A DNA stretch of 64,000 nucleotides. It comes from Isurus oxyrinchus. Taxonomy: Eukaryota. A model generated the notes under the pieces. That model saw only the letters and a list, made by a program, of their open reading frames with translations, was not told where the DNA came from and did no database searches. The stretch's first letter is position 1; every line of letters starts with the position of its first letter. The stretch covers positions 103,106,001 to 103,170,000 of the forward strand of contig JANJGN010000007.1 in NCBI GenBank assembly GCA_026770705.1, written 5' to 3'. The position numbers and the translations under genes are program-made. Shown piece by piece: positions 3,268-44,100 of the stretch.

Positions 3268-5985
3268 AGGACCTGCATGGGCCTGAGTTACGCCTGTCTT
3301 TTCCTGGGGTACGTGGAACATTCCTTGTTCCAATCTTACTCAGGCCCCCTCCCACCACTCTTTTTCAATACATCATTAGCTTTATTGGTGCTGCTTCATA
3401 CCCTCATCTTGACTTAGTAAAATGTATCAGTTTTGCTTCCAATTACCACCCCTCTCTCACTTTCACATGGTCCATTTCTAACACTTCCCTTCTCCCTTCT
3501 TTGACTTCTGCCTCCATTTCTGGGGATAGACTGTCTATCAATATTCATTACAAGCTCACCAACTTTCACAGCTACCTCAGCTACATCTCCTCACAACCTA
3601 CTTCCTGTAAGGACTACATTCCATTCTCCCAGTTTCTCCGCCTCCGTCACATCTGTTCTGATGATACTACCTTACAAAATGATGTATCTGACATGTCGTC
3701 CGTTTTCCTGAGCCAAGGCCCTTCCCCTCACACCACCAAACCCCCCCCAACCACTGTGGTTGACAGGGCCCTCAACTGTTTCCGACCCATCTCCTATTTT
3801 TATTCTTTCAGGGGATGAGAGCATCGCTGGCTAGGCCAACATTTAGTGCCCACCCTCAACTGCCCTTGAGCAGGTGGTGGTGAGCTGCCTTCTTGAACCG
3901 CTGCAGTCCATGTGGTGTAGGTACACCCACAGTGCTGTTAGGAAGGGAGTTCCAGGATTTTGACCCAGTGACAGTGAAGGAATGGTGGTATATTTTCAAG
4001 TCAGGATGGTGATTGCTTTGGAGGGGAACTTACAGGTGGTGGAGTTCCCATCTGCCTGCTGTCCTTGTCCTAGATGGTAATGGTTATGGGCTTAGAAGGT
4101 GCTGTCCAAGGAGGCTTGGTTAGTTTCTCTGGTGAATCTTGTAGATGGTACACACTGCTGCCACTGTGTGTCGGTGGTGGATGGAGTGAATGTTTGTGGA
4201 TGTGGTGCCAATCAAGCGGGCTGCTTTGGCCTAGACGGTGTCAAGCTTCTTGAGTGTTGCGGGTGTTGCACTCATCCAGGCAAGAGAGTAGTCCATCATA
4301 CACCTGACTTGTGCCTTGTAAATGATGGACAGGCTTTGGGGATTCAGGAGGTGAGTTACTAACTACAGGATTCCCAGCCTCTGACCTGCTCTTGTAGCCA
4401 CAGTATTTATATGGCTAGTCCAGTTTAGTTTCTGGCCAATGGTAAACCCCCGGATGTTGACAGTGGGGAATTCAGCGATCGTAATGCCATTGAATTTCAT
4501 GGGGCGATAGTTAGATTCCCTCAAGTTGGAGATGGTCATTGTCTGGCACTTGTGTGGTGCAAATGTTACTTGCCACTTGTCAGCCCAAGCCTGGATATTG
4601 TCCAGGTCCTGCTGTATTTGGACATGGACTGCTTCAGTGTCTGAGTAGTTGCGAATGGCGCTGAACATTGTGCAATCATCAACGAGCATCCCACTTCTGA
4701 CCTTACGATGGAAGGAAGGCCATTGACGAAGCAATTGAAGATCATTAGGCCTAGGACACTACCCTGAATAACTCCTGCAGTGGTGTCCTGGAACTGAGAT
4801 GACTGATCTTCAACAATCACAACCATCTTCCTTTGCGCTAGGTATGACCCCAACTAGCAGAGAGCTTTCCCAGGTTTCCAATGACCCCAATTTTGCTCCG
4901 GCTCCTTGATGTCACACTCGGTCAAATGCTGCCTTGGCGTCAAAGGCAGTCACTCTCACCTCACCTCTCGAGTTCAGCCCTTTTGTCTATGTTTGAACCA
5001 AGGCTGTAATGAAGTCAGAGGGTGAGTAGCCCTGGCGGAACCCAAGCTGAACGTCAGTGAGAGGTTATTTCTAAACAAGTGCCGCTTGATAGCACTACTG
5101 TTGATGATGCCTTCCACCACTTTTCTGATGATCGAGAGTAGACTGATAGGGCAATAATTGAATGGTTTGGATTTGTCCTGCTTTTAGTGTAGAGGACATA
5201 CCTGGGCAATTTTCCACATTGCTGGGTAGATGCCAGTGTTGTAGCTTCTGCCCTCAGCCTTTCCCCTCCCTCCCTGAGCCATGATAGGTTACCTTCATTT
5301 TTCACCCCACCAGCCTCCATATTCAAAGGATCATCCTCTGCCATTTCCGCCAACTCCAGCATGATGCCATCACAAACACAACTTCCCCTCATCTCGTTGT
5401 TCCCTCTGACACCCTAGTCTACTCCTCCATCACCCTCAACTCCTCATCATCTTCCCATGGCACCTTCTCATGCAATTGCAGAAGATGTAACACCTGCCCC
5501 TTTACCTCCTTCCTTCTCACTGTCCAAGGCCCCAAACACTCCTTTCAGGTGAAGCAGTGATTCACTCGCACTTTCAGTTTATTCTACAGCATTCGCTGCT
5601 CCCAATGCGGTCTCCTGTACACTGGCAAGACTAAACACAGACTGGGTGATCACTTTGCCCCACACTTTCACTCAGTCTGCAAGCATGACGCTTGCCATTT
5701 CAATTCACCGTCTTGCTCTCATGCCCACATTTCTGTCCTTGGCCTGTTGCAATGTTCCAGTGAAGCCCAACACAAACTGGAGGAACAGCACCTCATCTCC
5801 CATCAGTATTAGCACTTGCCTTAGTCTTCAACATTTACACTCCCTCTGTCTTGTGTCCATGACATCTTTGTCCAACCTCTCCTTAGCTCACACCTCTCCC
5901 TAACCTATTTTGCTCCACCTGCTCTACCCCCTCTCTTCAACAGTGTAAAACCCATCATATTTCTACCTCTCTACAGCTCTGATGT
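3268..5985 (+). mobile_element. Penelope-like element, degenerate RT + GIY-YIG endonuclease, split by a LINE at 3797-5245
   Basis: 3268-3795 encodes PLE-type RT (…SISGDRLSINIHYK…SCKDYIPFSQFLRLRHICSD). 5246-5800 encodes GIY-YIG (…QGPKHSFQVKQ…YSIRCSQCGLLYTGKTKHRLGDHF). Ends inside the hammerhead core ctgatg. Confidence 0.88.
3797..5245 (-). mobile_element. LINE family B (jockey/CR1-group, possibly Crack/Daphne-like), 3' part of ORF2
   Basis: ORFs 4363..4734 and 4566..4853: AGVIQGSVLG, VDDCTMF, WADKWQVTFAPHKC; characteristic 3' tail at 3797-3900. Confidence 0.85.
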
Positions 5986-6832
5986 CAATCACTTGGTGGA
6001 TATCTTGCCCTGTGCCTATTCACCTCGTGCGAGTGAGTTTCAGCAGGCTATTCAACCAAGGGGGAAATACAACAGCTGAGCCTGACTTTATGCAGATCTG
6101 GCCTCTCACATCAGTTTTCCAGCAGGGTAGTAAAGTGGGGTTGTGGTTAGATGCCAACCAGGAACAAGAACCTGGTTGATTTTCTCTCCTCCCCAGCCCA
6201 AGGTAAATTAGGAAGTCCTACAGGCTCCCGTTGGCTCTCATCAGTTGACTCAACACAGGCAAAGCTGACATAACCTACAAATAGAAACTGCACAGCTCTA
6301 ACATATAGGCAGTGAAAAAGAAAATAGACCAAGTGCTTTGTCCAAAGCTAATAAATGTCTGAACGAAGTTGCGGTATTTTCACTTTAGGCTTTTACCTAT
6401 AAATGGAAGAGATAAAATACACAGAGAGCAGCTGCTGGTGCTAATGTTTTTCTATTTGGCCTTGCAGAGGAATCTGTGACACATTCTTTTGCCAATTCTG
6501 GTCTTGTCTGGCCTTGAGGCGAGAGCTGAAAGATGTAAAGTCTGCACAATTTCAGGACCAGAGCCCAGGAGTGAGACAATGAACTGTTAGAAGTGACAGT
6601 TATTCAAAGTGCCTCAAAAAGCCCAAGTATTTTTTTTAAAAGTGCAATACTTGGATGAGAGGTGTCTTAGTGACATACCAAGTATCCTGGAAAATGTTAC
6701 ATCTCAACCTCCATACAGTTTAAAAGCTGCCTTCAAATGGAATCTTGTCCATGCAAATCTGAAAGTAAACTGAAAAGTATTTCAAACAAGTGAGAGGCAA
6801 CATCATCACACCGTTGTCAGACACAACCCCTC

Positions 6833-6970
6833 ATATCTGATGAAGAGTCATATGGACTTGAACGTTAACTCTGTCTTCCTCTCCACAGATGTTGTCAGAC
6901 TTGCTGAGTTTTTCCAGCAATTTTTGTTTTTGTTTCAGAGTTCCAGCATCCGCAGTATTTTGCTTTTACT
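6833..6970 (+). mobile_element. PLE terminal repeat fragment with hammerhead motif (older subfamily)
   Basis: ctgatga agagtc atatg gactt gaa cgttaact followed by the tail …gagtttttccagca…ccagcatccgcagtattttgctttta. Confidence 0.8.
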
Positions 6971-7763: not shown

Positions 7764-8619
7764 TGTCATAATACAACATTAATGTTTAAAATGTTACTGG
7801 AAATGATTTGTTTTAAATGGAGGTTTAGTCTGTGTGTGTGTTAACTGGATTAAAGCCAGGTAGTCCAGGTGCTTTGATGTGTAGTAGTTTAGAGATGTAA
7901 ACAGTAAGGTAAAGGGTGCATTTGTATTTTGTTGAATAGGGTATTCAAGAGTGGGTGTGAAATCTTGCACCTAGCTAGGAGACACCAAACAACGTTTATA
8001 TTACTAACACAATTGGTACTATGAAAGGGGTTCAAAGGGCCTGGTGATACAATGAAAATTTGCATTCAAAGGGAAAGGCTAGGCATAACAGATAGGAGTT
8101 TATCCAAGTTCTGTTGAAGGGTTATGAGGACTCGAAACGTCAACTCTTTTCTTCTCCGCTGATGCTGCCAGACCTGTTGAGTTTTTCCAGGTAATTCTGT
8201 TTTAGTTTTGGAGTTTATCTGTGCAGGTCAGAGGTATGTAAGATCTAAGCCTGTAAGCTTACCACTGTGTCTGCAAAGGAACAAATTGAAAGGAACCTCA
8301 TTTTGAATTTGTAAGGTGAAAAATGCTTTGCCTGGTCTCTGTTTAAATCTATTGATTATTGTTGCCATAGTAGAGATTAATTTGGGAATTTGTTAAAAGT
8401 AGCAATTTGTAGCCATGTGTATGTGTTTAATTTGTTGTAACTAACTAAATATTTCATTTAGTTTGATATAAAAACCTCTCAAGAACTGGTGGTCTTATTC
8501 CTGAATTTAGAGCTGCAACGCAAATCATACCAATTGAAAATAAAGGTTATGACAGTTGTTTAAAGTTTGCCTCTGGGATTTTAAATAACTCAGCCTTTAC
8601 AAACTGCTGTGTCATAACA
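7764..8619 (+). mobile_element. solo LTR-like element (copy 1)
   Basis: TGTCATA…CATAACA ends; colinear similarity with 44662-45410 and 21550-22206. Contains a PLE insertion at 8105-8209. Confidence 0.65.
8105..8209 (+). mobile_element. 105-bp PLE mini-insertion (hammerhead + tail), young subfamily
   Basis: Flanked by 10-bp TSD GGAGTTTATC (8095-8104, 8210-8219); hammerhead motif at 8107-8145. Confidence 0.85.
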
Positions 8620-9112: not shown

Positions 9113-9231
9113 AACTTCTGAATGAGATCATAGGCATGTTTGTAGTTCTGTGTGAGGAAGCAGAGAGAGACCGTGGCGACAGGATTGTGGCACCAGGAAC
9201 GATACAAGCAACAGAACAGATTGCAGCTTTC
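9113..9231 (-). CDS. VAC14: VAC14 internal coding exon (119 nt; equivalent of human exon 16)
   Basis: Minus strand: gtcgcctacag|GAA AGC TGC...CAG AAG TT|gtatcctttt. Translates [39 protein letters not shown](F), the conserved VAC14 LYRSWCHNP motif. Lies inside ORF 9022..9366. Confidence 0.97.
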
Positions 9232-11234: not shown

Positions 11235-11409
11235 CGTTGTACGCAGATCCTTCAGCTGGTTCCGTAGCTGGAAGAGTTCTGTTGACGTTAAGAGAATGGA
11301 GTTGAGAGTTTGGACCATGGTGGAAGCAAACTTGAGGTCTTCTTCCCGAAGGAGGATTTCAGCCATGGAATGAAAGATGTTCTCGGCATTTAACAGGAGG
11401 CACAGCTGC
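11235..11409 (-). CDS. VAC14: VAC14 internal coding exon (175 nt; equivalent of human exon 15)
   Basis: Minus strand: cctattcccag|G CAG CTG TGC...CGT ACA ACG|gtgagg. Translates (R)[58 protein letters not shown], matching the vertebrate VAC14 C-terminal region as I recall it. Canonical AG/GT; splices in frame to the next exon. Confidence 0.96.
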
Positions 11410-11433
11410 CTGGGAATAGGAAATGAGGAAGAC

Positions 11434-22774: not shown

Positions 22775-23940
22775 GTGAAGGGTTAACTTATGAGGAAAGG
22801 TTGTACAGATTGGGACTGTATCCATTGGAGGTTAGAAGAATGTGAGATGATCTTGTTGAAACATATGAGATTCTGAGGGGGCTTGACAGGGTGGATGCCG
22901 AGAGAATTTTCCCCTTGTGAGAGGGGCTAGAACTAGGAGAAACAGTTCAAAAATAAGGGGTAAAAGCAAAATACTGCGGGTGCTGGAAATCTGAAATAAA
23001 AACAGAAATTGCTGGAAAATCTCAGCATGACTGGCAGCATCTGTGGAGAGAGAAACTGAGTTAATGTTTCGAGTCTGTATGACTCCTCTTCAGAGGTCAA
23101 GATTTTATGCTGATTAAGAGGGGCTAGGGCAGGTGGAATGAGATAGCTGTCACCTATCCCTCACGTCCTAAGGGGAGATTGACAAAGATGTCATGGACTC
23201 AAGACAAAGGGAGTGTATGGTGGTGTTAAAGAGTAAAAGAGGAGCTGATAGTGGCATAAAGGTAAGATAGCAGAAGGTGCTAAAAGCAGATCGAGGGTCA
23301 GCACTCTGAAAGCAAAGCATTAAGAACAATTGTCAGGTGACCCTGTGGGGGAGGATTGGTTTGCGGAGAAAGGATAAAAGATGCTACCAGGCCTGCTGAG
23401 TTTTTCCAGCATTTTCTGTTTTTATTTCATGCTCCATCATTCGATGAGAGCATGGCTGATCTGATAATCCTCAACAAAAACAAAAATAGCTGGAAAAGCT
23501 CAGCAGATCTGACAACATTTGCGGAGAGGAATACAGTTAACGATTCAAGCCCGTATTTCCAGCATCCGCAGTATTTTGCTTTTATCTTACTGATAATCCT
23601 CAACTCCACTTTCCTGCCTTTTCCCCATAATCCTTGATTCCCTTACTGATTAAAATTCTGTCTATCTCAGCCTTGAATATATATGAGGAGAATTTTTTCT
23701 CTCTCAAGGGGTCATTAGTCTGTGCAATTCTCTTACACAGAGAGCAGTGGAGGCAGGTTCATTGGGCATTTTTAAGGCTATGTGAGATAAATTCTTGATT
23801 GATCAGGGAGTCAAAGGGTATAAGGGGTAGCTAGGAAAGTGGAGTTGAGGCCATAATCATATCAATCATGATCTTATCAAATGGTGGAGCATGCTCGAGG
23901 GTTCGAATGGCCTACTCTTGCTCCTAATTCATATGTTTGT
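22775..23940. mobile_element. nest: CR1 3' end (+) containing a PLE (22960-23430) and an inverted CR1 tail, which itself holds a PLE (23476-23589)
   Basis: CR1 text resumes at about 23683 (atgaggagaatttttt). The inner PLE is flanked by 15-bp TSD CTGATAATCCTCAAC (23461-23475, 23590-23604). Confidence 0.75.
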
Positions 23941-30499: not shown

Positions 30500-30808
30500 A
30501 AGAAGAAAAGAGTTGACGTTTCGAGTCCTCATGACCCTTCGACAGAACTTGAGTTCGAGTCCAAGAAAGAGTTGAAATATAAGCTGGTTTAAGATGTGTG
30601 GGGGGGAGCGGAGAGAGAGAGAGAGAGAGAGAAGTGGAGGGGGGGTGGTGTGGTTGTAGGGACAAACAAGCAGTGATAGAAGCAGTGATAGAGGACTCGA
30701 AACGTCAACTCTTTTCTTCTCCGCCGATGCTGCCAGACCTGCTGAGTTTTTCCAGGTAATTCTGTTTTTGTTTTGGATTTCCAGCATCCGCAGTTTTTTT
30801 GTTTTTAT
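30500..30808. mobile_element. young PLE insertion with internal inversion
   Basis: 13-bp TSD AACAGAGTTTATG (30487-30499, 30809-30821); minus arm 30500-30690, plus arm 30691-30808. Confidence 0.9.
30511..30549 (-). ncRNA. minimal type-I hammerhead ribozyme motif (PLE-borne, variant core)
   Basis: Minus strand: AGTT CTGTCGA A GGGTC atgag GACTC GAAA C GTC^ AACT. Stem I AGTT/AACT, stem II GGGTC/GACTC, GAAA, palindromic ACGT in place of stem III, GUC cleavage triplet. Confidence 0.65.
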
Positions 30809-38215: not shown

Positions 38216-39315
38216 ATGTGGATGTTAAAACTGCTCCCAGAGAGGTGTGTACATATACTGAGAGGTAAAAACAGGAGGAGGAAATCGAGTGTGAACGCAA
38301 ACACAGGAGGGGGAAAAGAAATAACAGGTTCTATTTTAATTCCCCCTTACTATTGGAAACCAAGCAGAGGGGCAGTTAAAATGGATTGGAGGTGATAATT
38401 ACCTACTGCTTTCCCACCTTGATCTGGCTCCAAGCTGGTGGGAACTCTTTGATAATGCAGATAGCGTTCTGATTATGTCACTGGGGCTCAAACTCTTGTT
38501 TTAATCTTGGGACAGAGAGGTAACAGCGATGGCTTTCTTGCCAGGCAAAACATTGCTGGGAACTGCAATCATGGTCTGAACAAGTAAAAAAGATAAGGTT
38601 AAACTTTTTGTTTTAGTTTGGTTGAGGACCTGAAGGAACAAGGAAGCTTTTCTAGCGCCACAAGGAAATCTTGGGCCCAACTTGTCCCAGGCTTCATCCT
38701 TGCACCACTGTGGCTGAGATTCTCCTCCTGGAGACTTAGCTTGTCCTGGTAACCTGGTGTAGCCTCTTGTCACCCTATTTTCTTGGACGGGCGCAGGTTC
38801 CCATCCGTTTGAGTCCAGGAGTTGGCAAGTGGCACATGAATGATGCTCAGCTGTTGAGATGGCCAAGCATCCCTGGTACCATTCCCACCTGGGAGTCGAA
38901 ACAGGTGAATCAGACAGATTCACAGAGGCAGCAAAACACACATGGTCAAGATAGACAACAAGCGAGTGAGTGAAACACATATGCACATGTTCAGAGTTTA
39001 TGTTACAGTGACAGACAGACTTTTCATCCCCTCTAGTGCCTATGAAATGAAGGAGAGGGGCGGTTTGTCACTACACATTTTCCCAGCAGCTATTTTTATT
39101 GTTCCTCAGGGAACAGTTGAAACTGTTTCAATCAGAGCTGAACAGTGAGCTACATTTTAGCTTTCAATTCCAGGGAAATGGCACTTGCCAAAAGGCAGGG
39201 CTCTCGAGATTGTCAAAGCCTGACAGTAATTGAAGTGAACAGGAAGTTTCCCCTTAAACAGTGACCCAGCACAAACATGACCCCGCAACTTTCCATGAGC
39301 TGCTGTATATAGAAC

Positions 39316-39721
39316 AAGCATGTAACCTTCCCAAATCCCAGATTACAGCTTTACTCTGGTCTGGCCTGTATGTCTTAGAAGCACACTAGACTTCAGGCTT
39401 CTATTACAATGGAGGCTGATACTACATTGTTTCTTCGCTCTATACTTCCGTCACTCTATTGCTCTAAACCCTGGGCCTACTCATGTTGAACTCTGTGGAT
39501 AAACAGTCAAGTGCTCCCAACGTACATGATGTATCTATCTGTTCCAATGTTTTTGTTTGATAGTCAGCTTGACTTCATCAGTTGCCTTGCTGTGTAGCAG
39601 GATTTTCAATGGATAGCCCAGTCTTGAGTTCCAAATAACACCAAGTTGGTGGCATGATTGCCAATAGTTGGTCAGCAGGAATACACAGTGCCAAATTCTC
39701 CCAAACCACAACTAAACAGGG
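39316..39721 (+). repeat. 406-bp inverted repeat, source arm (non-TE sequence)
   Basis: Reverse complement of 40789-41194 with about 7 substitutions and no indels by manual alignment. Confidence 0.95.
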
Positions 39722-40254
39722 GTGGTGCTTGGGATGATTGACAAAGGCACTCAAAAAAGAAACAGCAGCAACTGATACTTTGATTCTTCCCGCCTTGTTC
39801 TCCTGAAACTGATAAAAGCTGCTCTGAATGAAGAGAGGAAGAGGAGGCCATAGAATGGAGCATCAAAAGGAGATGGTGCACATCAAGATGAGGATCTTAA
39901 TGCTGGGGAAAATTGAATTATTCTATTTCAAGCTCTCTCAAAAGGTCAGGTATGGCTCTCATCGGCAGTCTCCAGCATCTATTCCCCTGCCTCAACCTTA
40001 GCATCAGAGCAGCAAAATCTAAGTTGACATTCCAGTGAAGTGCTACATTATCAGAAGTGCTTTCCCTTTGAATGAGGTACTACCCCATGGCCCAACGCTA
40101 CCAACCCTGATTGGGGATATTCCTTGAGGTTTCATCACATATCCTCCCACTCCAACTATCCTGCTCAATTAGACAGTCCTTTTGGGCCACTGAAGTATTT
40201 TTATAACTAAAAAGAAGCGTTCAAAGAAAATGTTCACAACACATCCAATTTGAT

Positions 40255-40429
40255 AAAAACAAAGAACTGCAGATGCTGGAAATCCAAAACAAAAACAGAA
40301 TTACCTGGAAAAACTCAGCAAGTCTGGCAGCATCGGCGGAGAAGAAAAGAGTTGACGTTTCGAGTCCTCGTGACCCTTCAACAGAACTAGGTGAATCCAA
40401 GGAAGGGGTGAAATATAAACTGGTTTAAG

Positions 40430-40460
<31 letters not shown>

Positions 40461-40788
40461 GGGGGGGGGGGGGGGGGGGGTGTGAAGTGGAGGGGGATGG
40501 TGTGGTTGTAGGTACAATCAAGCAGTGATAGAAGCAGATCATCAAAAGATGTCACAGACAAAAGAACAAAAGAACACATAGGTGTTGAGGTTGGTGATAT
40601 ATATCTAAACGAATGTGCTAATTAAGAATGGATGGTAGGGCACTCAAGTTATAGCTCTAGTGGGGGTGGGGGGAGCAGAAAAGATTTAAAAATATTTAAA
40701 AATAATGGAAATAGGTGGGAAAAGAAACATCTATATAATTTATTGGAAAAAACAAAAGGAAGGGGGAAGAAACAGAAGGGGGTGGGGA
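40255..40788 (-). mobile_element. young PLE 3' fragment (534 bp) with hammerhead motif at 40350-40388
   Basis: Same tail as the 27921 and 30808 copies; contains (GT)n and a G-run; left flank ends with TSD ATCCAATTTGAT. Confidence 0.88.
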
Positions 40789-41194
40789 CCCTGTTTAGTT
40801 GTGGATTGGGAAAATTTGGCACTGTGTATTCCCGCTGACCAACTATTGGCAATCATGCCACCAACTTGGTGTTATTTGGAACTCAAGACTGGGCTATCCA
40901 TTGAAAATCCTGCTACACAGCAAGGCAACTGATGAAACCAAGCTGACTATCAAACAAAAACATTGGAACAAATAGATACATCATGTACGTTGGGAGCACT
41001 TGACTGTTTATCCACAGAGTTCAACATGAGTAGGCCCAGGGTTTAGAGCAATAGAGTGACGGAAGTATAGAGCGAAGAAACAATGTAGTATCAGCCTCCA
41101 TTGTAATAGAAGCCTGAAGTCTAGTGTGCTTCTAAGACATACAGGCCAGACCAGAGTAAAGCTGTAATCTGGGATTTGGGACGGTTACATGCTT
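40789..41194 (-). repeat. 406-bp inverted repeat, copied arm, inside the PLE target-site duplication
   Basis: Abuts the truncated PLE end; followed by 7 nt and the second TSD copy ATCCAATTTGAT (41202-41213). Confidence 0.95.
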
Positions 41195-44100
41195 TGTCAA
41201 TATCCAATTTGATTGTCACTATGATTTTTCTCCTGGGTCGCTCTCCAGGGGATTAATCTTTAGTTCCTGGAGATAGCGCAACTATACTTCTGAGGACTGT
41301 TATTCTGGAAGGATGAGTTTGAATGGGCTAAGGGCCCATTTCTAGACCTAAACCTCTGTCACTCAATGCATCATATTCATTCCATTCAATGGTCAACACA
41401 ACCAAGCATTCACAAGCAAAAAAATGGAGACACCACTGAAACTAGGGAGTATAAAATTATCTAATTCATCAATAAATGATGATGTACTTTGGGAGCAATG
41501 CACAAAGTAGATAGCAACACCTTTTTTCAAACACACTTGGTCCCTGAAGGCTGAAAACAATTACATTGTCAAGAGGCAATCTGTCAGGATCAGGGACCTG
41601 AAGAAAGTAACTGGGACTTCATGAAACCAATTCAACTCTGACAACAAGTGGCAAACTGCCTTCTGAGATATCCTGCTTTATGGACTGCATGGGTTGAGAA
41701 AATTCAGTCAAGTGTCAGATTGGAAGAGCAGCCTAGAGTATACCAGACATAGTCTGACGAAGCACTAAACCATTCAGATCAGAGCTCTACCTTAGAAAGA
41801 GCAACCTATAATTGAATCTATTCCTCAGCAATGAGAACATGATGCTAGCTTTGGGTCACAAGAGTGGTCCTGCCTATTTGTCACAGTGAAATCTCCAGAT
41901 CAGCATTGATGGGATCCAGAGAGAAATCTGGACTCAAAGCCATCACTTCACAACCGAACAGTCAACTGGAGCCAAGGGGTGTAATGGCATGAAGAACTAA
42001 GTGAAGGGAAAAAAAAAGAAACATTCTGACACCAGGGGGCAGCCCTCCTTTTTAACTGTGCCTTCTTTAAGGCCCCTTTCATACAGTAACAATGTTAGGC
42101 ACTGATCTATTGCCAGGAGGCACAATTCCAACTGCTGTCTTGCCTAAGGGACACTCTGAAGAATGCCGCAATACAGAGTCAGTGCCAGCGGTTCCCCACA
42201 GTGAGGTCATGTAGCTGTGGGCAGCTCACCCTCCAAATGAAAAACAGGTCCTTCCCCACAGCGCACTTTTAAACTCAGATGACTGGCAATTTCCATGTGG
42301 CGCTATGTCAGAAGTGAGGCTGGGCCAGCTAACAGGACATTTCATGCTGTTTCTTAAAATGGCAGGCAGGAAACTGCTAGGAGTCCAAGGCAGAAAGTTG
42401 CATGTGGACCCAAGCTCTGGCTCTCAATAGGGGCACCAAACATTTCAACTATCACACCAGTAGCTCTTATGCAAGATGTACGCAGAAACTGGCTCTGGCT
42501 AACTTCCAGCCACGCCTGGCGTAATTAATCTTGCAAGATTAGACTGGGAGACTTCTAGCCAATCTGGGAGGATTGGCAACCCTAGCTCAAATCGGGCTGA
42601 ACTGAAAGCCTGCCAAGGGCCCAGTGTGTATAGTAGGTCAGCCACAAATAGACTTGTGGGTACTAGAAGTATTACTGCATTACAACTGAGAAGCCATGTT
42701 GCACCTTGCACGTACAATAAATTGAAATGAAGTAATACTCACTTCTTCCCAAACCTCCCTCCTTGACAAATTAAAAGATTGAGGATACTAAGGAAATGTG
42801 ATTCTATAGGTGTAAACTCACTCCATTCATACAGCTGAAACCAAGTGTGGCTGGGTGGATAGCTATTGACCATCATTCTTGGGAACATTGGTGGGGCATT
42901 CAAGAATAATTTAAGGAGGAGTTTGTCTCTGCTTGTCTGCACTGCAGAGTGCAGGGGAATTGATTGGGAAGGGGAGGGGAGCCAAAGGTAGGCGACCATC
43001 TTTGAAGTGACAGAAGACTACAGCAATTCACCTTTCTGCATGGCAACAAAAATAACCTTTTTGTTAATCTAAAAGCAGAAATTCATTGACACTTTGCAAG
43101 ATGACCTCGACTCCTAATATATAATATATAAACAGCAACTATTTTATGGAAAGATATATCCAGCATCTTGGAACAAGGCACTCAATCCAGATGCTCAATT
43201 TCCAGTTTAGTCTTTTCATTAGTAAAATGTAATGTGAGAGTGCCCACTATAATTTCAAAACACATCCAGCTCCACTATTCTAGATTCTGTCCTTCAAATC
43301 TGGGGCTGAAACTGGATGGAGTACTTTAAATTGTACAACACTAGGGTGAATTAGTTGTCGCTTTAAGTTGGTCATTAAGGATGATCACTGTGGAGTGTTT
43401 TGAAGGAACGAGTTGAGTGCATTAAACCAGAAGTGTATTGCCACTAAAGCATTTTACCTTGTCTGGTTTTTGCTTTCACATTTTGACACGGGCTTAGTGA
43501 AAGCACAGTGCAGCAGGACTACAAGGAGTAGAGTGGGGAGGTGCTGTTGCATTGTGTTGCACTGACAATGTCTTCACTATAAATCTGATTGGATGTAGCA
43601 TTTAGCAAATGCGCTGGTGACATCTTGTGGCAAATCATTACTTCAGACTTATTAATTAATTATATATACAGCCTGTCGAATGAACAGAGCTCAAACTATC
43701 GCTATTATTAAATGCCAACCCGTTGCTGAGAAATTGGATGTAGAATAAGAGGCAGTATCACTTGGGAGCACGAACAAGTCTAGTGATCCATTGGAAGCAC
43801 TTAAACAATTTCAAAATCCAGGAGAGTGAAGCCTGTGCAGTTTGTGTGTGACATCTGAACCAAGGGATTCAATTATAGCCTTCAAACCCATCCTCATTAT
43901 GATAATGTTACATTTCCTGGTAATAAAGTGTAGATCACTCAAAACATTCAAAACAGACCTGGTTACACAACAAAATGGAAAGAAATGGTGCCCTCAGTAT
44001 ATTAAACAAAGTACAGCTTGCAACAGCTCATGTATTGCCAAGCCGCCAGAGCTGACTCTTTGTAGTCTGTTGCTTAAATGCCTTGATGTAGCCACACTCA

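Follow-up and report, generated by a model that had tools for sequence, protein, structure and literature searches.

How can a Penelope-like retroelement come to carry, within a single target-site duplication, an inverted copy of the host sequence beside it? The question is raised by a locus in the 64-kb stretch of DNA analysed here (the window), for which the original prediction proposed one integration event in which the first cDNA switched from element RNA to the plus DNA strand of the target.

Anatomy of the insertion and its joints

All components of the predicted structure were re-found by sequence comparison. The 12-mer ATCCAATTTGAT occurs on the plus strand at 40243–40254 and 41202–41213 and has no other exact match in the window; allowing up to one mismatch, three matches were obtained in the window compared to 0.89 expected. 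The left copy is near-palindromic (10 of 12 bases) and its last two bases also match the element end. Both copies of the predicted 12-bp duplication are exact and, given the two ambiguous bases, its length is 10–12 bp. The left copy is followed by the 5′-truncated 3′ end of the element, a pLTR with its tail (40255–40788, 534 bp, sense on the minus strand), which corresponds to the first cDNA. The captured arm (40789–41194, minus strand), an inverted copy of host sequence 39316–39721 (plus strand), is bluntly joined to it, and a filler of 7 nt (41195–41201) leads to the right copy of the duplication, the reciprocal DNA end. The donor lies 521 bp to the left of the target site, separated from it by an unduplicated host spacer (39722–40242). 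Donor and reverse complement of the arm differ at 7 of 406 positions (39328, 39539, 39572, 39573, 39677, 39698, and 39705), with no indels; of the 120 inverted pairs found, the 25 longest were listed, and among these the pair ranks first in both length and similarity. As predicted, host sequence was duplicated and not element sequence; the 406-bp unit occurs in two copies only within the window.

At the element/arm joint (40788/40789) there is 0-nt overlap on both the element side and the host side. The next base of the element family past 40788 differs from the first base of the arm, the end of the cDNA is not complementary to 39722–39735, and the pairing between cDNA 3′ end and new template expected for a snap-back or template switch is absent at this joint. 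At the outer joint, an imperfect in-register extension of the donor (39304–39315, plus strand) pairs at 8 of 12 bases with the filler and the first five bases of the right duplication, including 4 of 5 terminal bases, and represents a candidate priming or annealing microhomology; a fit of this kind has a chance of 0.36% (20000 random pairs), the pattern being picked post hoc. Alternatively, the filler fits the right flank, as 6 of its 7 bases equal the first bases of that flank (41214–41220) and 9 of 10 match with context (chance about 0.4%, also picked post hoc). A templated origin of the filler appears more plausible than a random one. Copying from the element tail was set aside on a by-eye comparison, which gave several mismatches at the filler start. 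The outer homology would be equally good as a final annealing site and, thus, does not indicate a direction of synthesis. The second segment is positioned in opposite orientation beside an intact duplication, as in twin priming, with the 7-nt filler between them.

Host gene context

Two VAC14 coding exons were identified on the minus strand, an internal exon at 11235–11411 (approximately residues 556–614 of homologue P0019; Pfam Vac14_Fig4_bd, E 2.8e-20) and the next exon at 9115–9231 (residues 615–653 of P0019; Pfam E 4.3e-16; 95% by tblastn), indicating that the host transcript is of minus sense. The element is of the same sense. Residues 1–555 are absent from the window, and from this absence, rather than from a transcript, the insertion appears to be located in an intron of VAC14. 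The donor segment is unspliced intron; RNA and DNA templates would give identical letters. Base skew, taken as a possible trace of germline transcription, gave no signal at 35–45 kb and was mixed elsewhere in the window. A PDB sequence search with a VAC14 exon yielded no matches.

The element and its siblings

The element end is 93–97% identical to three young siblings over 109–136 nt and shares approximately 80% identity, across 134 nt, with an older copy that is linked to a weak GIY-YIG match. Family sequence continues beyond 40788 with letters unlike those of the arm, indicating that the copy at 40255–40788 is truncated at its 5′ end; the duplication is short and placed at an AT-rich site. 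The pLTR of Penelope elements is described as having an optional 30–40-nt tail and a head-to-head inverted second arm (PMC8557442; PMC11167929). Correspondingly, a head-to-head two-armed layout was observed at six of the nine other loci of the element group in the window, with the tail-less arm starting at element position 29–39 in five of these six and at 88 in one. Sibling duplications measured 10–15 bp at five of the seven loci tested (one with a mismatch), while one locus had a weak 8-mer and one had none that was convincing. The tailed pLTR, two-armed siblings and short duplications bear out the predicted assignment to Penelope-like elements. Endonuclease-bearing Penelope elements are characterised by a telomerase-related reverse transcriptase and by a GIY-YIG endonuclease at the C-terminus that has two cysteines between its motifs. 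The copy at 40255–40788 is devoid of the coding part. An older relative at 5402–5902, tied to the tail of this copy via 5832–5980 and 6836–6968, gave a Pfam GIY-YIG match with E 0.013 and 16.3 bits, below the cut-off of 22.6, and contains CxxC. A candidate reverse transcriptase fragment (3270–3815) had no Pfam match.

In three of the six two-armed siblings (at 16.7, 23.46, and 30.5 kb) the tail-less arm contains element sequence that the tailed arm lacks. Such arms must have been primed separately and not by fold-back of the first arm; the remaining three are compatible with fold-back. The 23.46-kb sibling is a twin-priming product with nearly non-overlapping arms. The second arms at 27.9 and 30.5 kb show matches of 2–3 nt next to a mismatch, and short templated fillers in these two siblings are located at the inner joint, the presumed last-joined point.

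Minimal hammerhead ribozymes are a feature of the pLTR in endonuclease-bearing Penelope elements. A pattern scan identified a motif of this type at 40355–40384 (minus strand), in which one base of the core is non-canonical; the core is canonical in the older copy at 6837–6865. An Rfam search gave no hammerhead match, and the monomer fold (z +2.35) was no better than that of shuffles. Over 39200–41400, Rfam returned four matches with E 1.4–4.6, all far under the cut-offs.

Presence and age of the structure

In run X2, for which counts are incomplete, contig depth was 36.2 over the arm compared to 18–22.6 on long flanking contigs, and the element bins reached millions. Separate contigs were obtained for both outer ends. 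In a second organism (organism B, 1.4–1.6% diverged), the left duplication runs into the element tail in both runs, and the junction of arm, filler and duplication was recovered in one of the two (X16), which stems from an independent study; its filler differs at 41201. The two-copy depth over the arm and both outer junctions in organism B strongly indicate that the structure is real, is not a dispersed repeat and is older than the split. A joint counted as bridged with 31 letters on each side. Among the listed contigs, the inner element/arm joint was crossed only in X2, by a single contig reaching 11 letters into the element, short of that limit.

The predicted youth of the element is therefore relative, as the insertion is shared with organism B. 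Both organisms examined carry it, and no empty site occurred among the best 15 of 45 contig joints. A joint of 40140 to 41220, found in all four runs, was rejected as an empty-site allele since its short side comprises only 18–21 letters; it is probably a paralogous old repeat. A modelled empty site had no paralogue across the junction within the window. The arms have diverged by 1.7%, similar to the 1.4–1.6% between the two organisms sharing the element (Fisher p 0.83), and at least two of the seven donor/arm differences arose after the split from organism B. A dinucleotide mutation at 39572–39573 was dismissed, as X16 shows an intermediate state.

Proposed two-ended priming with a local template

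Target-primed reverse transcription (TPRT) is the route by which element RNA is copied. With somewhat better than even confidence, we propose that both ends of the target were primed and that the second end copied a minus-sense local template. The element endonuclease would set staggered nicks approximately 10–12 nt apart, as suggested by the duplication, and the plus-strand end would then copy the 534 nt of element RNA seen in the anatomy. The minus-strand end, which in the sibling insertions would copy element RNA to yield the inverted second pLTR, may have taken a minus-sense local template in its place, with a sloppy or self-templated start of 7 nt followed by synthesis that began near 39316 and ended near 39721. 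Both newly made 3′ ends, meeting at 0-nt overlap, would be joined bluntly, presumably by end joining, and the gaps filled. The product would be an ordinary head-to-head Penelope insertion with host intron as its second arm. That one event produced it, as predicted, is likely because element and arm lie within a single duplication of a kind typical of the family.

Two-ended priming is supported by the position of the arm, which is that of the second arm at six of nine sibling loci, and by the separately primed second arms in three of the six two-armed siblings. The 0-nt homology at the element/arm joint points in the same direction, as does the intact duplication, which is also retained in twin-primed L1 insertions (PMC11702581); the imperfect homology at the outer joint resembles that of the second arms at 27.9 and 30.5 kb. 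Polarity agrees as well, as element and VAC14 share the same sense and twin priming on two templates is reported to give chimeric segments in opposite orientation (PMC11702581; PMC13174262). In vitro, a Penelope protein has been described to cut and extend both strands and to start at RNA sites non-homologous to the primer (PMC11167929). The similar arm lengths, 534 and 406, agree weakly with a correlation between lengths that has been described for L1. Several points weaken this reading. The filler is located at the outer joint and fits synthesis ending at that joint, as in the original proposal, whereas the sibling fillers lie at the inner joint, the presumed last-joined point; three of six two-armed siblings are compatible with fold-back; the polarity match is one of one against a prior of 50%; and the intron placement comes from missing residues, with no skew signal at 35–45 kb and no empty site obtained.

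Of the two candidate templates of the second end, nascent VAC14 pre-mRNA appears somewhat more probable than the minus DNA strand, each being less likely than not. The original prediction excluded the pre-mRNA, which would be correct for copying by the first cDNA alone; second-end priming on minus-sense RNA gives an inverted copy. Local pre-mRNA co-insertion has been reported for one L1 case (PMC10191854). It seems doubtful that Penelope reverse transcriptase recurrently takes nascent host pre-mRNA at the insertion site as a second template.

Alternative explanations

The originally proposed switch of the first cDNA is retained as the best-surviving alternative, possible albeit on the unlikely side. 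After 534 nt, the first cDNA would leave the element RNA for a plus-sense template, either the plus strand of the DNA or an antisense RNA whose end lies near 39721, copy 39721 to 39316, and become attached to the reciprocal end via microhomology-mediated end joining, leaving the filler. Filler and microhomology at a joint are the signature of polymerase-theta joining. The filler and the 4/5 overhang homology at the outer joint are as expected for such a final join, and sibling fillers mark last-joined points. Precedents exist in R2, with snap-back to target DNA close by (PMC11371274), and in L1, with templated insertions attributed to cDNA switching (10.1101/2024.08.27.596794). However, primer-template homology is missing at the start of the switch, as the cDNA end does not pair with 39722–39735 and the next base of the family differs from the first of the arm, and priming inside duplex DNA would require a homology-free jump. 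Moreover, L1 templates are described as typically <250 bp and no more than 15 bp away from the site (10.1101/2024.08.27.596794), compared to 406 bp at a distance of 521 bp here, and second arms in this element family are often separately primed.

Improbable is a course in two steps, in which a normal two-armed or truncated insertion later broke and was patched by repair with the flank as template, so that host sequence took the place of the second arm. Palindromes are break-prone, and head-to-head arms, as present at six of nine sibling loci, would provide them; the filler looks like a repair scar, and no empty or intermediate allele that would exclude this course was seen among the best 15 of 45 joints. 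Against it, there is no evident remnant of a second pLTR, the duplication is intact to the base, the divergence between the arms matches that between the organisms, and at least two of the seven arm differences postdate the split. An assembly artefact, or a dispersed 406-bp repeat inserted twice, is scarcely credible, as the short bridging of the inner joint in contig rather than long-read data and sample S1 as possibly the assembly's own source are outweighed by the two-copy depth, the separate contigs for both outer ends, the right junction repeated in an independent study, the mere two copies in the window, and the seven differences between the arms.

Implications

The insertion is one accident at a single locus, and accidents of this kind have been catalogued for L1 and R2; nothing points to a function. 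Probably it is carried along neutrally, and by its sequence it would form a long hairpin in the pre-mRNA, which the original prediction put forward as a possible ADAR substrate or fragile site; the structure persists in two organisms. The origin of the inverted second arm in Penelope elements is described as unsettled (PMC8557442; PMC3846280). A second arm of unique host sequence indicates which templates the second end is able to copy, information that element-only palindromes do not give. If the pre-mRNA was the template, the locus would be evidence, in vivo and from the germline, for priming at both ends and for the ability of the enzyme to take neighbouring host RNA. If such use were recurrent, near-perfect host-derived hairpins would be seeded in introns of very-high-copy genomes, following a strict rule: elements in sense to the gene yield inverted captures and antisense elements direct ones. 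The insertion thereby suggests a cheap genome-wide test on capture orientation.

Comparison with known systems

Host-flank capture of this kind by Penelope elements was not found in the open-licence literature; closer cases may exist in subscription papers, supplements and figures. Canonical Penelope insertions such as Pen2a_Av share one short duplication around a tailed pLTR end and a head-to-head second arm (PMC3846280; PMC8557442). There, however, the second arm is an inverted 5′-truncated pLTR, whereas here it is local host intron, and host captures are described in these accounts as lying between pLTRs, in trans or as spacer, and not as an inverted copy of the target's flank (PMC3846280; PMC8557442).

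L1 twin priming on two RNAs likewise joins element cDNA to a non-element segment in opposite orientation with the duplication intact (PMC11702581; PMC13174262; PMC10191854). Local pre-mRNA was co-inserted in one case there (PMC10191854), whereas an RNA template at our locus is conjectural. The enzyme classes differ, being GIY-YIG/telomerase-like here and APE LINE for L1, and here the germline event is common to two organisms. L1 templated insertions and fold-back inversions also duplicate or invert local genomic sequence at a truncated 5′ junction in one event (10.1101/2024.08.27.596794; PMC10191854; PMC11702581). As reported there, they are mostly <250 bp and beside the site, or at the 5′-side (reciprocal) flank, in contrast to 406 bp from the 3′ (primer) side, 521 bp off, in the present insertion. 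In R2 snap-back, similarly, target DNA close to the site is copied in antisense next to the end of the cDNA, in an engineered system in which that end presumably primes through pairing (PMC11371274). No pairing is visible here.

Structure and genomic setting of the insertion

Between two copies of a 12-mer (40243-40254 and 41202-41213), the only exact matches to it in the window, lie 534 bp of a 5'-truncated Penelope-like 3' end in minus-strand sense (40255-40788), a 406-bp arm of captured host sequence (40789-41194), and 7 nt of filler (41195-41201). The arm pairs in inverted orientation with the host original at 39316-39721, with 7 mismatches and no gap, at a distance of 1067 bp. The two form the longest inverted pair among the 25 listed, of 120 found in the window, and many further inverted repeat pairs occur in the same intron. 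No third copy of the arm was detected within the window. Both the positions and the gap-free pairing described in the original prediction were reproduced. The duplication at 40243-40254 is near-palindromic (10 of 12 positions), unlike most sibling duplications tested, and its overhang may fold back, making it a possible source of flank-like filler. Contig depth is raised on either side of the target (39988-40235 and 41214-41351), which together with a weak 40140-41220 joint present in all four runs compared points to an older low-copy repeat as the landing site of the element.

Two minus-strand exons match Vac14_Fig4_bd and correspond to residues ~556-653 of a 785-residue homologue. Since no credible match to residues 1-555 was obtained within the window, we infer that the insertion site lies in an intron of more than 52 kb in the minus-strand VAC14 transcript, with the element in sense orientation. 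The region 11412-64000, which comprises the more than 52 kb directly upstream of the exon at 11.4 kb, contains no VAC14 coding exon. Base skew gave no independent support for transcription of the host intron.

The element and its siblings

The 3' 109-136 nt of the element share 93-97% identity with three siblings in the window, and in an older relative this tail is linked to a reading frame that matches GIY-YIG weakly (E 0.013, under the cut-off). A hammerhead-like core with one variant base is present in the element, with no support from Rfam or folding. The changed base occurs in the young subfamily (8111-8140, 30516-30545, and 40355-40384), while an older copy (6837-6865) has the canonical one. 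The young subfamily is nonetheless very abundant, and self-cleavage may be dispensable for it. In an old Penelope copy at 5402-6968, the pLTR is broken by ~850 bp of other sequence (5981-6835).

Six of the nine other loci in the window are head-to-head and two-armed. The tail-less arm begins at element position 29-39 in five of these six, and in three the second arm contains sequence absent from the first. Duplications of 10-15 bp surround five of the seven sibling loci tested. The tail plus inverted pLTR of these loci agrees with descriptions of Penelope insertions (PMC8557442, PMC3846280), and the architecture is typically Penelope. The tiny copy at 23461-23604, with arms comprising element positions 1-31 and 29-115 (nearly no overlap) and a perfect 15-bp duplication, is a clean twin-priming footprint at two known start sites.

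Support from contigs of two organisms

Among 24 runs listed, 17 contained at least half of the words sampled; 13 of these runs came from organism B, a relative diverged by ~1.5%, and the other 4 from a single sample of organism A. Four of the 24, all short-read contigs, were compared: X2 and X4 from organism A, whose sample may also have been used for the assembly itself, plus X14 and X16 from two studies of organism B. The X2 contig over 39316-39676 had a depth of 36.2 compared to 18-22.6 on long flanking contigs, and element bins reached depths of up to millions, indicating about two copies of the arm and a very abundant element. Left-flank contigs ended 30-35 bases into the arm in all four runs, and right-flank contigs began 30-35 bases into the right arm in three (X2, X4, and X16). 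The X16 contig spans the arm/filler/duplication junction and reaches 35 letters into the arm; among the pieces listed, the joint between element and arm is crossed by one X2 contig only, which extends 11 letters into the element. In all four runs the contig of the spacer (39722-40242) extends 26-29 letters into the element tail, less than the tool's 31-letter rule, which is not the behavior of an empty site. No empty-site joint occurred among the 15 joints listed of 45, and the empty site that the original prediction expected in a relative was not recovered. The insertion structure is real and common to both organisms.

When aligned to the window, organism B shows differences at 41 of 2831 bases (X14) and 46 of 2852 (X16), and the 7 differences in 406 between the arms do not deviate from this divergence (Fisher p 0.83). 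At 39698 and 39705, at most 31 bases from the unique spacer, the left arm of organism B has the window's right-arm letter; therefore, both differences arose later, in the original of organism A. Right-arm letters also occur in organism B contigs at 39539 and 39677, where phase cannot be assigned, and X16 displays an intermediate state at 39572-3. The letters of organism B at these sites indicate that few differences separated the arms at the time A and B diverged, and the capture would date from roughly that time or slightly before it. At 39328, break points of X2 and X4 contigs and unlisted near-end differences point to a left arm that, in this sample of organism A, has the window's right-arm base; the window could therefore show an allelic or an erroneous base here.

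Mechanism of capture

The inner joint (40788/40789) is blunt: in all four runs the family continues, in loose ends, past 40788 with a base unlike the arm's first base, and no complementarity was found between the cDNA 3' end and 39722-39735. The outer joint can be read in two ways, the extents of both having been picked after inspection: either the arm continues in register at 8 of 12 further bases (chance 0.36%), including four of the five terminal overhang bases, or the filler is templated by the right flank next to it (9 of 10 matches when context is included, chance 0.39%; 6 of 7 for the filler by itself, chance 12%). Organism B has another base at 41201, which weakens the second reading if organism B is ancestral. 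The outer homology carries no directional information.

We lean towards two-ended priming, in which the second end copied a minus-sense local template. Staggered nicks leave two 3' ends; if the one on the minus strand, located at the right duplication, is extended on a minus-sense template, the minus strand gains plus-sense sequence and the product is an inverted copy. This geometry is that of twin priming, the captured arm taking the second-arm slot of sibling insertions. VAC14 pre-mRNA had been excluded as template, which holds only if the first cDNA did the copying, as the second DNA end offers another primer; within two-ended priming we tentatively regard this pre-mRNA as a possible template and the minus DNA strand as a less likely one. 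Twin priming is reported to yield chimeric segments of opposite orientation (PMC13174262); two-template insertions of this type, and intact duplications in twin-primed events, are described (PMC11702581); local pre-mRNA was co-inserted in one case, ascribed to strand switching (PMC10191854); and purified Penelope protein cleaves both strands, extends each of them, and initiates without primer homology (PMC11167929).

Against two-ended priming counts the position of the filler, which is at the outer joint, as if synthesis ended there, whereas sibling fillers at 27.9 and 30.5 kb sit at the inner joint. This would fit the model of the original prediction, a less likely rival, that the first cDNA itself copied the local flank on a plus-sense template. 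Snap-back of R2 onto nearby target DNA is on record (PMC11371274), and L1 templated insertions have been ascribed to cDNA switching, although these are typically shorter than 250 bp and lie no more than 15 bp away (10.1101/2024.08.27.596794). An ordinary insertion followed by later repair is improbable, and an artefact highly so.

Possible consequences and comparison with known systems

The arms are predicted to form a duplex of -792.7 kcal/mol in the pre-mRNA, a value computed without a control. In RNA of the minus strand, all five transition mismatches (39539, 39572, 39573, 39677, and 39698) would become G-U pairs (one-sided p 0.03, tested post hoc), a bias that could be explained by mutation bias as well as by selection. 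A spacer of 1067 bp is long for cruciform-type fragility, and the inverted-arm structure persists in two organisms.

We concluded that this is a real, well-preserved capture that probably arose in a single event. No report of local templated capture by Penelope elements was found in a search of open-licence text; at the truncated 5' junction, such capture is already known for L1 and R2.
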